Source: Promethearchaeota archaeon
GTDB taxonomy: Archaea > Asgardarchaeota > Lokiarchaeia > Sigyniarchaeales > SOKP01
Assembly (NCBI GenBank): GCA_019894975.1
Contig: JAGXNO010000034.1
Span: 1 to 43,025, forward strand
Reading direction: 5' to 3'
DNA length: 43,025 nt
The position numbers and the translations under genes were made by a program. The notes beneath the pieces are model-generated. The model saw nothing but the letters and a program-made list of their open reading frames with translations, was not told the origin of the DNA and ran no database searches. Below, one piece after another: positions 8,901 to 14,652 of the stretch; the first letter of the stretch is position 1, and every line of letters begins with the position of its first letter.

Positions 8901-10880
8901 TTGTCTGAAAAACAGACCAATGAAAATGTAAACGAAGAAAGTCAAACTAGAATAGGTGTGTTCGTATGTCACTGAGGTATCAATATAGCAGGAATCTTAG
9001 ATATCCCAAAAATCGTTGAAGAAATAGATAAAATAGAGAATGTTTGGGCTTATCCATATCTTTCTCTTTGAACTGAAGGCGGTTCTGCTGAAATTAAAGA
9101 AAAACATGCAGATCGAAAGTTTGATAGAGTTTTGGTAGCAGCTTGCACTCCAAAAACGCATCAACCAGTATTTCACGCGATATTAACAGAAATGGGATTA
9201 CCCCCAAGATACTTAGAATTCGTTAATATAAGAGAACATTGTTCTTTTGTACATCAAGCTCCAGAGGTACGTGAAAAAGCAACTCTTAAAGCGATAGAGT
9301 TAATTAAGGCAGGTATAGCTCGTTCAAAGTTATTAGAAGATGTTCCCACTAAAACAGTTCCAGTAGAACCTTCCGCTCTCGTAGTGGGAGGAGGAATTGC
9401 GGGATTATCTGCAGCTATTGATTTAGGAGATGCAGGATACAAGGTATATTTAGTTGAGAAGAACACGACAATTGGCGGTCGCATGTCCCAGCTTGATAGA
9501 ACTTTTCCTACTGATGATTGTTCGATATGAATATTGGGACCAAAGATGCTTGAAGCTAATCGACATCCAAATATTGAGATTCTTTCCTACAGTGAAGTTG
9601 CTGAAATCGATGGCTACATTGGTAACTTTGAAGTGAAAGTAAGGAGAATGGCTCGATTTGTTGATGAGGATAAATGCACGGGTTGCGGCACTTGTACAGA
9701 TGTATGTCCTGTCTATATAAGTAATTACTTTGATGAGAACTTATCCGCAAGAAAAGTTATTGACGTAGCTTTTGCGCAAGCAGTACCAGCAGTATCACAA
9801 CTTGATAGAAAAACGTGTATTGAATGTTTTGCTTGTGTAGATGCATGCGACCAAGATGCCATAGATTTCAGTCAACAGGATAAAATCGTGGAACTTAAGG
9901 TTGGAACTATAATAGTTGCTACTGGTTGGGACCTCTATAAAGGCGATGATTATGGATATGGCAAATTTGATAACGTAATTAATCAAATAGAACTTGAAAG
10001 GATACTTGCACCAAATGGTCCTACATATGGTCATTTAAAACGTCCTTCCGATGGTAAGCGTCCTTCGAAAGTATTATTTATTAATTGTGTAGGTTCAAGA
10101 GATGTGAATAAAAATGCTCACTGTAGCGTAATCTGTTGTAACCTTTCACTGAAAAACTCTAAGCTAATTAAATCCGAATATCCTGATTCACAAATCGTCG
10201 TTAGCTATATAGATATGCGCTGTGCTGGAAAAGATTATGAAGAATACTATAGAAGATCTCGAGACGCTGGAGTTATTTTTGTTAAAGGATTAATTGGGAA
10301 AATTGAAGAAGATCCTCTTACAAAGAACCTTATAGTACAATTTGAGCCTGTTGGTACCGATTCCGTAGTAACCATGGAAGCCCATATGGTTGTATTATCA
10401 TCTGCTTCACTTCCATCTCAAGGTACATTGCAAATTGCTAAGGTATTAAAAATGGAAAGAAGCCCCGATGGCTTTCTAAAAGAATATCATGCAAGACTTG
10501 ACCCAATCAGCACTAAAGTACCAGGTATATACATCTGTGGTTCTGCTCAAGGGCAGAAAGAGATTGATAAAGCAGTAAGTCAAGCTAGAGGTGCAGCATC
10601 AGTAGCAGGTATTCCAATGGGAAGAGGAGAATATACTATGGAGTTAATACGTGCTATTCCTTCAGATGAACGTTGCGCAAAATGTTATATGTGTATAGAG
10701 GCTTGTCCATATAGAGCTATTTCGGTAAATGAAACAGGAAATATTGTTGTTGACTTAATTAATTGTCGAGGATGCGGAACTTGCGCAGGCATATGTCCTT
10801 CTAAAGCGATTGAATTAACTTACTATAGAGACGACCAATATATGGCTCTAATCGATCAACTTTTACCAATTGAAGAGTAG
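8901..10880 (+). CDS. hdrA: Heterodisulfide reductase subunit A, selenoprotein (659 aa; Sec at codons 25, 57 and 210)
   Basis: One frame from TTG 8901 to TAG 10880, interrupted only by TGA at 8973 (RIGVFVCH-U-GINIAG), 9069 (YLSL-U-TEGG) and 9528 (DRTFPTDDCSI-U-ILGPKM). Each is at a conserved HdrA Cys. GGGIAG FAD motif, CVGSR, HCSVICC and four ferredoxin motifs. The ORF track splits it into 9132..9530 and 9534..10880. Confidence 0.95.
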
Positions 10881-10894
10881 AGAGGTAATAAAAA

Positions 10895-11353
10895 ATGGCA
10901 GAAGAAAAAGATATAAAAATTATTGTATATGCTTGCTGGAAATGAGGATATGGTTCAGCTGATATGGCAGGTACAATTCGCGCGCAATATCCAGACTCAA
11001 TCCGAAATGTCTTAGTACCTTGTACGGGGCGTGTAGGATCTGACTTAATAATGCGTGCTTTTGGTAGAGGTGCTGATGGTGTTGTAATAAATGCTTGATA
11101 TCCTGGTGAATGTGATTATGAGACAGGGAATTATTTTGCGTACCGACAAGTAGAATATGTCAAAGAAATACTTAAAACAGTAGGAGCAAGTCCAGAGAGG
11201 ATAAAAATCATATATTGTACCGCAGCAGAAGGCCAGAAATTCCAAAATGAAGCTATTGAATTCGATAAAACTATACGCAAATTAGGACCAAGTCCTCTAC
11301 GTACAAAAGGCACACCTAAGAAAGGAAAGGCCAAAGCGAAAGCTAAGGCTTAA
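10895..11353 (+). CDS. mvhD: MvhD/VhuD [2Fe-2S] hydrogenase delta subunit, selenoprotein (152 aa; Sec at codons 17 and 68)
   Basis: Hand translation MAEEKDIKIIVYACWK-U-GYGSADMAG...VPCTGRV...GADGVVINA-U-YPGECDYETGN...LGPSPL. TGA at 10943 and 11096; GAGGT RBS. Not in the ORF track. Confidence 0.95.
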
Positions 11354-11360
11354 ATAATAA

Positions 11361-11434
11361 ATGTGTTTACTAATGAAGCTGAGTTAAAAAAACGAGAACT
11401 CATGCTGAAGAAATGGGTGCACCATAAGACACAT
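11361..11434 (+). promoter_or_regulatory. Candidate eukaryote-like SECIS element 3' of hdrA-mvhD
   Basis: ATGAA 11373-11377; stem GCTGAGTT (11378-11385) pairs with AACTCA-t-GC (11397-11405); loop AAAAAAACGAG; TGAA 11406-11409 completes the tandem G.A/A.G core; outer helix ATGTGTTT (11361-11368) pairs with AGACACAT (11427-11434). Confidence 0.85.
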
Positions 11435-11549
11435 AAAATAGTTTTTAAAATATAAGCAATAAGAGTAAAAATTTAGTTATCATATTAGTAATATAAGAAA
11501 AAAAAAGGAAATTGTAAGTACTAATTTAAAATTTCAGAGTTGGAAATAC

Positions 11550-12689
11550 ATGGATGCAATGGCAGAATACCTAATTAAGAGTGAAGATTTTTCTAAAATT
11601 TTAGCAACGTTACTAAAGGAAAAAGTTGTAGACAAAATCATAGGTGCAGAATTAAGAGTTGATAAGAAGTCAGGTAATATTGACAGATTTACAGTTCAAC
11701 CAAAATTAGTGGAAAAAGAAGAAGATCTTTCAGATTTTCCATTATCTCCATTAATCGCTTTTGGATATGCGAGAACAGATTCTGCATCAAAATTCCTTCA
11801 TAAATCTGTAGCAGGTGCTATGAATGAGAAAGTAGGACTTATAGCTCGCCCTTGCGATACACGTGCTTTAATTGAGCTTGCTAAAATTAAACAAGTTAAT
11901 CTAGATAATCTCTTTATAATTGGTATAGAGGATCGAGGAATGCTTCCGAAAGCAGGAAGAGAAATGAGAGCAATTAAAGATGTTGATCCTACTAAAATCG
12001 TGAAAGAGAAAGTTGGAGACAACGGTTTAATTGTCAAATTAGATGATGGGAGTACAAAAGAACTTAAATTTACTGTCTCAGAAAATTGTCTAAGATGTTT
12101 TCGCAAAATTCCTGTTGTTGCTGATTTAACTGTAAGTGATCTTGGTATACCGATCGATTCAGAAGAAATCATTCTTAAAGTGTACTCTGATAATGGAAAT
12201 GATATTTTAGAAAAATCAAGGATAAATAAGAAAGACCTTCCTGATAATGTGAAGAAAGAACATACCGAAAAATTTACCGAAATTATTGAAAAAGCTAAGG
12301 AGAAAAGAGCAAAGGATTTAGAAGAATGGGATAAACTCTCACAAGATGAAAAGATAGCAGAACTGCTTAAATGCACGATGTGTAACACGTGTATTCGAGG
12401 ATGTCCTGTTTGTTACTGTGTAGATTGTATACTCCAAAAGAAGAGAAAGGATAAAACAATAGATAAAGTTACGTATCAATTAACACGAATTGCTCATGAT
12501 GCAGATAGATGTGTTGAGTGTGGGAACTGTGATAACAATTGTCCTCAGAATTTACCCCTCTCACTTTATTTCCAATCTCTCAATGATGCTTTCAAAGAAA
12601 AATTCGGATATGAAGCAGGTATGTCTCTTGATGATATTCCATTCCGTAGTGCAAAAGCAATTGCGGAGATGGAATTAGAAAAGACTTAG
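11550..12689 (+). CDS. FdhB/FrhB-family (F420-interacting) subunit with C-terminal 2x[4Fe-4S] domain
   Basis: ARPCDTRALIELAK..QVNLDNLFIIG, NCLRC, ADLTV, CTMCNTCIRGCPVCYCVDC and CVECGNCDNNCP match the formate dehydrogenase beta subunit layout. Confidence 0.85.
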   Translation: MDAMAEYLIKSEDFSKILATLLKEKVVDKIIGAELRVDKKSGNIDRFTVQPKLVEKEEDLSDFPLSPLIAFGYARTDSASKFLHKSVAGAMNEKVGLIARPCDTRALIELAKIKQVNLDNLFIIGIEDRGMLPKAGREMRAIKDVDPTKIVKEKVGDNGLIVKLDDGSTKELKFTVSENCLRCFRKIPVVADLTVSDLGIPIDSEEIILKVYSDNGNDILEKSRINKKDLPDNVKKEHTEKFTEIIEKAKEKRAKDLEEWDKLSQDEKIAELLKCTMCNTCIRGCPVCYCVDCILQKKRKDKTIDKVTYQLTRIAHDADRCVECGNCDNNCPQNLPLSLYFQSLNDAFKEKFGYEAGMSLDDIPFRSAKAIAEMELEKT

Positions 12690-12844: not shown

Positions 12845-13507
12845 ATGTTATCAAATTTAACAAAGAATCTAGTTGAACTTGAACGTGATCAAGTATTATC
12901 TGAAATAAAAGAACGCATTGGTCAAGGTGAAGATCCATTGAAGATCTTCGAGGAATGTAAGAAAGCCATGGATTTGGTCGGTGAGAAATACAAAAATAAA
13001 GAGTATTTTCTTGCGGAGTTAATGCTCTCAGGTGATCTTTTTAGAGAGGCAACGGAGCTAATCGAACCATATTTACGAGGAAAAGTAACAGAAGGAGATA
13101 TTAAAGGTAAAATAATACTTGCTACAATTCAGGGAGATATTCATGATTTAGGCAAAGATATTTTTGGTATGCTTCTAAAATTAGAAGGTTTTGAGGTTTA
13201 TGACTTAGGTGTAGATGTCAATCCAGATGTTGTGATTGAGAAAGTAAAAGAAATTCAACCCGATTTTCTTGGGTTTTCAGCTCTTCTTACTATAACTTTT
13301 GATCCTATGAAAGAAGTGATTGAGAAATTGGAAAAAGCGGGACTTCGGGATAGATTGAAGATATTGGTTGGTGGAGGAATCACAACCCCACTGGTGAAAG
13401 ATTACACTGGAGCAGACTTTCAAACAGTCGATGCCATGGAGGGTGTTCAATTTTGTTTGGAAACAATTAAAGCAAGAGTTGTAATTAGAGCACGGGGGGG
13501 AATATAA
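12845..13507 (+). CDS. Cobalamin-binding corrinoid protein (MtaC/MtbC-like)
   Basis: N-terminal B12 cap, GDIHDLGK (DxHxxG), GFSALLT and VGGG. Confidence 0.93.
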   Translation: MLSNLTKNLVELERDQVLSEIKERIGQGEDPLKIFEECKKAMDLVGEKYKNKEYFLAELMLSGDLFREATELIEPYLRGKVTEGDIKGKIILATIQGDIHDLGKDIFGMLLKLEGFEVYDLGVDVNPDVVIEKVKEIQPDFLGFSALLTITFDPMKEVIEKLEKAGLRDRLKILVGGGITTPLVKDYTGADFQTVDAMEGVQFCLETIKARVVIRARGGI

Positions 13508-13509
13508 AG

Positions 13510-14652
13510 GTGAAGGAAGAATACATGACTCCTCAAGAGAGAACAACAGCTGCAATAAACTTGGAAGAGCCAGATCGTGTACCAATTGCTCCTATTGTAG
13601 GCATGGACTTACCTGCGACATATTATGGATTAAATATCGCAGAATTGCATAGAGAACCTATAAAAGCTATTGAGGCAATGGTTAAATTTTTTGATGAGTT
13701 TGGAGGTTGGGATGGATATTCTACTCTTCCCCTTGTTAAAATAGGGTATATCTTAGGAGGATTAAAATTTAAAGCACCGGGACAAGAATTGCCCGATGCC
13801 CCGGGTTATTATGGACAGTTTGATGAAGGAGAGTGGATGAAAGTAGAAGATTATAAAACAATTGCGGATATTGGCTGGGGTAAATTTGTCGCAGATGAGT
13901 ATATCTATCGGATCAGTGATTGGACTCCTGAAGATGTGGAAGAAAATAGAAAAAAATATTTTCAGTTCGCTCTGAAAGGTGGTGAAGAATACACTATAAA
14001 AAGAAAAATGGGAATGAGAGCGGGAGCTAATCGTGTTCATCCTTTTTTCCTGCTTTCTCTAAATCGGTCACTGCTTAAATTCACCCAAGATCTCTATTAT
14101 AGACCTGAATTAGTCGAAGCAGCGCTCGACACTATGACAGATGGTTTAATAAAAAGCACCATAGCACAATGCAAAGGTAATGGGGGTAATGTAGTTTTTA
14201 TACCTGAAGAAAGAGCGGAAGGTGCTATTTATCCTTTGAAAATTTTTGAGCGATTCTGGTGGCCGTATACGAAAAGAATAGTAGAAAGTTTATACGATGA
14301 GGGAATTATCTCTTGGCTTCATCTTGATCAATGTTGGGATTTAAATATCCCCTATTTTAAAGACCTACCTAGAGCGTCATGCATAATTGACCTTGATGGG
14401 CTTACAGATATATTCAGAGCTAAGGAAATCCTTAAAGATCATTTATGCATTATGAGTGATGTTAGCGGTTCTTTATTTTCCATTGGAAGTCAAAAACAAG
14501 TCGAGGATTACGTTAAAAAGCTTATTGATAAACTTGGTGTTGATGGAGGGCACATTTTATCATCTGGTTGTGAAGTACCTCCCAATTGTAAACCAGAAAA
14601 CTTTAAAGTTTTTCTTAAAACGGGTAAAACTTACCAATTATCAAAGGAATAA
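13510..14652 (+). CDS. Uroporphyrinogen-decarboxylase-fold methyltransferase (MtaA/CmuA-like)
   Basis: MTPQER..EEPDRVP, HLD and ILSSGCEVP motifs; coupled to the corrinoid gene (2-nt gap). Confidence 0.85.
   Translation: MKEEYMTPQERTTAAINLEEPDRVPIAPIVGMDLPATYYGLNIAELHREPIKAIEAMVKFFDEFGGWDGYSTLPLVKIGYILGGLKFKAPGQELPDAPGYYGQFDEGEWMKVEDYKTIADIGWGKFVADEYIYRISDWTPEDVEENRKKYFQFALKGGEEYTIKRKMGMRAGANRVHPFFLLSLNRSLLKFTQDLYYRPELVEAALDTMTDGLIKSTIAQCKGNGGNVVFIPEERAEGAIYPLKIFERFWWPYTKRIVESLYDEGIISWLHLDQCWDLNIPYFKDLPRASCIIDLDGLTDIFRAKEILKDHLCIMSDVSGSLFSIGSQKQVEDYVKKLIDKLGVDGGHILSSGCEVPPNCKPENFKVFLKTGKTYQLSKE

Follow-up and report, generated by a model that had tools for sequence, protein, structure and literature searches.

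A conserved third arm and a k-junction-like layout in the SECIS of a Loki-type hdrA-mvhD operon

The stretch of DNA analysed here, hereafter the window, is 43,025 nucleotides long and constitutes contig C103 of a Loki-type Asgard MAG (genome 3.9-Mb, 95% complete). Permafrost metagenome runs contain the window DNA in full. Its hdrA gene, encoding heterodisulfide reductase subunit A, carries three in-frame UGA codons (8973-8975, 9069-9071 and 9528-9530). When TGA is translated as selenocysteine (Sec, U), the gene reads as a single 659-aa frame, in which Pfam detects FAD/NAD-binding and 4Fe-4S domains. The adjoining mvhD gene (also named vhuD) carries two further in-frame UGA codons (10943-10945 and 11096-11098), and both TGA are retained in mvhD orthologues. 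The two frames are otherwise intact, and the UGA codons stand at conserved cysteine positions. The first two Sec residues of HdrA, U25 and U57 (codons in 8973-9071), fall within an N-terminal MvhD-like part of the protein and mirror both Sec positions of MvhD.

Just past mvhD lies a compact SECIS element at 11361-11434, whose AUGA core is 277, 430, 1845, 2304 and 2400 nt downstream of the five UGA codons (Table 1). Elsewhere in the genome there is one tRNA-Sec (contig C44, 65491-65583, complement), with a SepSecS gene about 320 nt away from it (C44, 64016-65170, complement). Judging from these gene and codon arrangements, the UGA codons of hdrA and mvhD are most likely read as Sec under the guidance of this element. 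Downstream of the element and on the same strand follow genes for an FrhB/FdhB-like Fe-S protein (11550-12689), a B12-binding corrinoid protein (12845-13507) and a URO-D/MtaA-like methyltransferase (13510-14652), which tie HdrA-MvhD to a methyl-transfer module. Four sediment metatranscriptome runs yielded hdrA/mvhD fragments from close relatives, as contigs; the interval 11322-11515 was almost uncovered.

Table 1 Coordinates of the hdrA-mvhD locus and of the parts of its SECIS element.
Feature	Position	Strand	Description
hdrA (heterodisulfide reductase subunit A)	8901..10883	+	UAG stop; 14 nt before mvhD
mvhD/vhuD (FlpD family)	10895..11353	+	UAA stop 11351-11353; Pfam PF02662, E = 1e-40
Whole SECIS, three-way junction	11361..11434	+	begins 7 nt past the mvhD stop
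P1 basal helix, 5' strand AUGUGUUU	11361..11368	+	pairs with 11427-11434; 8 bp including one U-G
Junction nucleotides	11370..11372	+	C11370:G11410; U11371 (L1):A11409 (c1); A11372 unpaired (L1.1)
AUGA core, 5' side	11373..11376	+	A and U = L2 and L3; G and A = sheared-pair positions
P2 upper hairpin	11377..11406	+	9-bp stem 11377-11385/11397-11406, U11403 bulged
P2 apical loop AAAAAAACGAG	11386..11396	+	11 nt
GA core, 3' side	11407..11408	+	opposite AUGA
Connector AGAA	11409..11412	+	A11409 (c1) and G11410 (c2) pair back to U11371 and C11370
P3 mini-hairpin (third arm)	11413..11425	+	AUGG / loop GUGCA / CCAU, 4 bp
P1 basal helix, 3' strand AGACACAU	11427..11434	+	1 nt past P3
T5 tract	11442..11446	+	8 nt past the SECIS; next gene starts at 11550; probable archaeal transcription stop

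The original prediction for this locus, made from the letters of the DNA, had described a eukaryote-type SECIS with an extra hairpin in its internal loop, and all the parts it described at 11361-11434 are found where it placed them. It gave the upper helix as 8 bp with one bulged U; the bulge is there, and the length becomes 9 bp once the core-adjacent A-U pair is counted. The folding check it proposed came out in its favour: unconstrained RNAfold of 11361-11434 returns the three-way fold at -16.8 kcal/mol (z = -3.05, 0/200 shuffles as good), which stays when flanks are added. A covariance model of Asgard SECIS elements, R3, matches 11359-11437 with 44.8 bits (E = 7.6e-10) as its sole match in the window. 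On its own, the third arm P3 reaches -3.8 kcal/mol, a value that 9% of shuffled versions of its 24 nt also attain (p about 0.09). The case for its reality is thus made by conservation and covariation in related elements, not by the stability of a single sequence.

In its key region the element is of a published kind. Mariotti et al. 2016 described the lokiSECIS as an AUGA, a 9-bp stem, an 11-nt A-rich loop ending in AG, and a GA, and reported multi-Sec HdrA and as many as six UGA codons served across about 2 kb (PMC4989117); Huang, Xiao and Zhang 2024 generalised it as the Asgard type I eSECIS-like structure (PMC11227280). All lokiSECIS features are present in the window, in agreement with the earlier call of a eukaryote-like SECIS with an AUGA/GA core: AUGA stands directly 5' and GA directly 3' of a 9-bp stem with one bulged U, the 11-nt loop starts with five A and ends with a G preceded by A, and a single element just past vhuD is present for the hdrA-vhuD pair. 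No difference exists in the published key region, and the basal helix, P3, the junction pair described below and the P3 loop motif apparently lie outside the published models. By these features the window SECIS is a further member of the lokiSECIS class, and the SECIS itself was already known. No Rfam SECIS model matches the element at its gathering score or at E up to 10, and Mariotti et al. likewise obtained no Rfam match for Loki elements.

The third arm, the three-way junction and the loop motif find no mention in the texts of Mariotti 2016, Huang 2024 or a 2026 review (PMC13188914), while the supplementary fold drawings of PMC4989117 may show the arm. The same holds for Sun 2021 and for Peiter and Rother 2025, and a literature search on SECIS together with a "three-way junction" brought up no mention either. 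The third arm is apparently missing from the published models, which comprise the core, the upper stem and the apical loop only.

To see how general the arm is, SECIS elements were collected in ways that do not depend on it. A scan of this genome for a pattern of AUGA, stem, loop and GA only, which is blind to the flank, gave ten convincing elements, and model searches added three. All 13 have P3 between the 3' GA and the basal helix, and no two of them share a P3 stem sequence. The genes before them are three hdrA-mvhD pairs, one hdrA, prxL with one or two Sec, a 52-aa vhuU-like gene and ORFs of no assigned family; a Pfam search with three ORFs beside other SECIS of this genome gave no match. 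Loci in other genomes were chosen by their MvhD or PrxL protein, ignoring the RNA. Guided by MvhD, we found P3 in 35/35 loci of GTDB species genomes and also behind mvhD genes with Sec codons in five more Asgard families (f2, f8, f13, f16 and f19), with a SECIS missing from the fetched stretch in 2/20 of these other-family mvhD loci (L110 and L111). Guided by PrxL, we found it behind 12 single-Sec orthologues. Altogether, P3 occupies the same place in 63/63 distinct SECIS 3' flanks examined. A measure that needs no alignment agrees: the 24 nt after GA reach -3 kcal/mol or better in 92% of the 63 distinct true flanks, against 8% of 96 decoys, which are pattern matches in the same genome. Across the six families sampled, sequence comparison therefore identifies P3 as a conserved third arm that belongs to the normal build of Asgard SECIS.

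Covariation was assessed by aligning 79 distinct elements with model R3, which is fitted to P1, P2 and P3 and so favours those helices; many rows of the alignment are close kin. In this alignment 92.5% of the modelled positions are paired, compared with 52.7% in column shuffles (0/500 reach it) and 27-48% with slid partners. Pairing reaches 94% in each of P1 and P2 over the 79 rows, and every one of the 6 modelled P1 pairs and of the 9 P2 pairs shows double changes. P3 shows double changes at all 5 of its pairs; its four inner pairs are 80-100% paired, and its stem occurs in 39 distinct combinations. Compensatory exchange within single families is illustrated by ACUCU/AGAGU versus ACCCU/AGGGU in f13 and by CCCCC/GGGG versus UCCCU/AGGGA in f19. 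These double changes, with the arm present in every GTDB species locus behind orthologous mvhD, bear out the covariation check that had been proposed for the element. The core varies little: AUGA is invariant in all elements but one (GUGA), and its 3' counterpart is GA or AA throughout. The apical loop has 11 nt in 57/80 elements and a final G in 74/80.

An alignment made with MAFFT (A1) was discarded because it put the window subfamily out of register, setting AAUGUG against AAUGA. Models R1 and R2, built on other subfamilies, did not find the window element even with filters off; the broader R3 did. R1 matches family f1 only (25/25 genomes), plus two marginal hits, and this restriction reflects a narrow model rather than absence elsewhere, since protein-guided sampling found SECIS in other families.

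Next to the core, the base 2 nt before AUGA (L1) pairs with the base right after the 3' GA (c1) in 80/80 elements, as G:C in 44, U:A in 31, U:G in 4 and A:U in 1. In the R3 alignment this pair is formed in 98.7% of the 79 rows, though it lies outside the aligning model. The independent switches between pair types number only about three or four: U:A occurs, along with the four U:G, in the window subfamily and, independently, in one type II-like element of this genome, and A:U in family f2. The window subfamily is an outlier of the class, with U:A and not G:C at L1:c1, the connector AGAA and not C plus 1-2 nt, and a P3 stem of AUGG/CCAU and not ACC../..GGU. It is because these departures are compensatory that the junction pair is convincing. 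A second junction pair, between position -3 and c2, is formed in 74% of rows, the window included. The TPP riboswitch arrangement, in which c2 pairs with L1.1, was also considered; in the SECIS rows c2 is seen to pair with position -3 instead.

The strands around the core follow a constant order. Past L1 come three unpaired bases (R, A, U) and then G-A; on the other strand come G-A, c1, 1-3 bases, P3, 0-2 bases and P1. P3 thus begins 1-4 nt beyond the 3' GA in every element, the positions of the tandem G.A / A.G pairs are invariant and compatible in sequence across elements, and the P3-P1 spacing of 0-2 nt is compatible with coaxial stacking. This arrangement resembles the k-junction, in which a kink-turn gains a third helix on its non-bulged strand, c1:L1 is paired and the third helix is coaxial with the C helix (Wang et al. 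2014, PMC4005666; Li et al. 2023, PMC10573300). Further traits of k-junctions are cross-strand hydrogen bonds to the A1n and A2b adenines and a kink induced by metal ions. The likeness is closest to the DUF-3268 type: in both, the non-bulged strand carries a third helix directly past the G.A / A.G positions, L1 pairs with the first connecting nucleotide, three more unpaired loop nucleotides precede GA, and the third helix adjoins the C helix, on which it could stack. Unlike the solved k-junctions, Asgard SECIS have 1-3 extra unpaired nt between P1 and L1, and they also differ in having 1-3 extra nt between c1 and P3. The known k-junctions belong to riboswitches, rRNA and a bacterial intergenic RNA, and none to a recoding signal. 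In secondary structure and covariation, the Asgard SECIS core is therefore laid out like a k-junction, and from this layout we infer a k-junction fold in three dimensions. The covarying L1:c1 pair and the k-junction layout are what is new here.

The published behaviour of k-junctions also bears on how the element might be recognised. Metal ions alone fold k-junctions (PMC4005666, PMC10573300), whereas neither of the two k-junctions tried with A. fulgidus L7Ae was folded by it, as the third helix occludes its site (PMC10573300). By analogy, this argues against binding of L7Ae to the element. Taken together, exclusion of L7Ae and ion-driven folding suggest that the arm may serve to fold the core without a protein of the SBP2 type.

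The loop of P3 is conserved in its own right. It ends in G-Y-R in 68/78 distinct rows from six families (the GCA of GUGCA in the window), and the G is present in 34/37 distinct P3 loops. The motif is constant across families of very different G+C content, while loop length ranges from 3 to 9 nt. Many relatives (e.g. L100-L103 and L113-L124) allow another reading, in which the stem moves by one base and G-Y-R with the A behind it becomes a GNRA tetraloop (GCAA, GCGA); the window loop GUGCA does not allow it. A conserved G-Y-R on a stem that varies freely points to a specific contact.

We then propose a model for the hdrA-mvhD element, which we consider probable as a whole: this Loki-type SECIS would be a compact, k-junction-like three-way junction in which P3 and L1:c1 lock the kink and G-Y-R contacts the reader. 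From the 3' untranslated end of the transcript, the element would send Sec-tRNA(Sec) to the five UGA codons 277 to 2400 nt upstream. P2 would open with the AUGA/GA kink-turn core and bear the A-rich loop, and P3, placed on the non-bulged (3') strand immediately beyond the core and abutting P1, would together with the junction pair hold the core kinked without a helper such as SBP2. The G-Y-R of the P3 loop would be the putative contact for an Asgard SECIS reader. What is observed is the fold, together with its conservation and covariation and its recurrence behind different genes in six families; Sec insertion, the three-dimensional fold and the binding partner enter the model as what these observations suggest. 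Several points stand against the model. A Loki SECIS was non-functional in Methanococcus maripaludis (PMC11881835). The R3 alignment was fitted to the very helices it supports, with kin among its rows and few switches at L1:c1. The unpaired nucleotides between P1 and L1 have no counterpart in solved k-junctions, and the second junction pair is formed in part of the rows. The 4-bp P3 of the window is not significant alone, and two of the other-family mvhD loci gave no SECIS.

Three other readings of the arm were weighed against this model. The nearest to it takes P3 as a recognition hairpin whose loop is directly bound by an Asgard SECIS-binding factor or by the Sec elongation factor, the kink-turn core being secondary. 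It would then work like the hairpin loop of the bacterial SECIS, which is read by SelB. The recurrence of G-Y-R and of the loop G in six families on freely varying stems speaks for such a role, as does the fact that archaea have no known SBP2 (PMC4989117, PMC9723677). Loop length is nevertheless inconstant, and the AUGA/GA core and the apical A-run are even more strictly conserved than the P3 loop. We regard this reading as possible and rather doubtful; it is compatible with the model above and so not exclusive of it. A different view is that P3 and P1 serve to stabilise or terminate the 3' end and accompany the SECIS without belonging to the recoding signal. The transcript unit does end with this element, the T5 tract being close behind it, and the published models require the core, the upper stem and the loop only (PMC11227280). 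Yet P3 sits within the basal helix, 1-4 nt from the core, to which the junction pair ties it; it is retained where the SECIS overlaps coding sequence and a stop codon (C93 vhuU and C109 mvhD); and its loop motif holds across families of widely differing G+C content. This view is therefore improbable.

The original prediction itself had favoured an adaptation to the gene pair, with the extra hairpin either letting one SECIS serve many distant UGA codons or recruiting a protein of the L7Ae family. Kink-turns are bound by L7Ae-family proteins, eukaryotic SBP2 among them, and the element at 11361-11434 would indeed have five UGA codons to serve, the farthest of them 2.4 kb away. However, P3 is just as present behind single-Sec prxL (the 12 orthologues and two in this genome) and behind vhuU, and P3 is therefore no device for multi-UGA recoding. 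Recruitment of L7Ae meets the failure of the A. fulgidus protein on both k-junctions tested, its site being blocked by the third helix (PMC10573300). An adaptation of this kind is very improbable. Of the predicted three-way-junction variant, the three-way junction stands; the idea of a variant special to the hdrA-mvhD pair was dropped, as the compact SECIS is published and the hairpin is the norm in every Asgard SECIS sampled.

Compared with the eukaryotic SECIS (types I and II; Rfam RF00031 and relatives), the window element shares the AUGA/GA quartet core, the unpaired apical adenines, the 3' UTR position and action at a distance on several UGA codons. It differs in its shorter upper stem (9 bp) and in bearing a third hairpin on the 3' strand, a place taken in the eukaryotic element by a simple internal loop. 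With the euryarchaeal SECIS of Methanococcales and Methanopyrus it shares the 3' UTR position and service to a vhuD with two Sec codons, whereas its P2 lacks their GAA_A internal loop and G-C clamp and has a single bulged U only. The elements of methanogen vhuD read AUGA...GAC, with GAC/AAC noted (PMC4989117), and the C that follows GA in most Asgard elements recalls this GAC/AAC.

It is tempting to speculate that Asgard SECIS are self-folding k-junctions, in which the arm and L1:c1 replace SBP2 and shut out L7Ae, G-Y-R docks a Sec-decoding factor, and from which the eukaryotic SECIS lost the arm once SBP2 appeared. We think it unlikely that this bolder scenario holds in full. Taken alone, the window is ordinary, one more member of a published class. 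SECIS recognition in archaea is nonetheless a long-standing question, and Asgard SECIS serve as a model for the origin of the eukaryotic signal. If the conserved unit is, as it appears, a k-junction-like three-way fold whose third loop is conserved in sequence, published search models built on core, upper stem and loop would be incomplete, truncated elements might fail in heterologous tests through the missing arm, the P3 loop G and the L1:c1 pair would offer concrete handles for experiments, and the step to the eukaryotic SECIS would be recast as the loss of an RNA arm.

Some of the other SECIS of this genome lie beside ORFs of interest in themselves. At C87:80159-80632 (-) (L047:363-836 (-)), a 158-aa ORF without a Pfam match contains two in-frame UGA codons side by side (..HADUUADIM..). 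A lokiSECIS that has UAGGA/UCCUA as its P3, but no clear basal helix, stands 8 nt further on; the ORF is a candidate selenoprotein, possibly with a diselenide. A full three-armed SECIS at C98:164916-164990 (+) (L049:4019-4090) stands right behind a small ORF that contains a stretch of acidic residues and a single in-frame UGA (..DDDDDDCDIFUKRIF..), possibly a small selenoprotein. The type II-like SECIS at C33:26167-26246 (+) (L126:2968-3045), with its apical ministem, third arm and U:A junction pair, lies behind a 320-aa ORF without a Pfam match, whose sole in-frame UGA lies near the N terminus, perhaps before the true start. At C93:20517-20593 (-) (L125:115-194 (-)), the 52-aa vhuU-like gene with one Sec (..RCFDCULSCAAH..) has as its stop codon the UGA within the AUGA core of its own SECIS. 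The stop of the C109 mvhD likewise falls within the core of its own SECIS (96162-96237).
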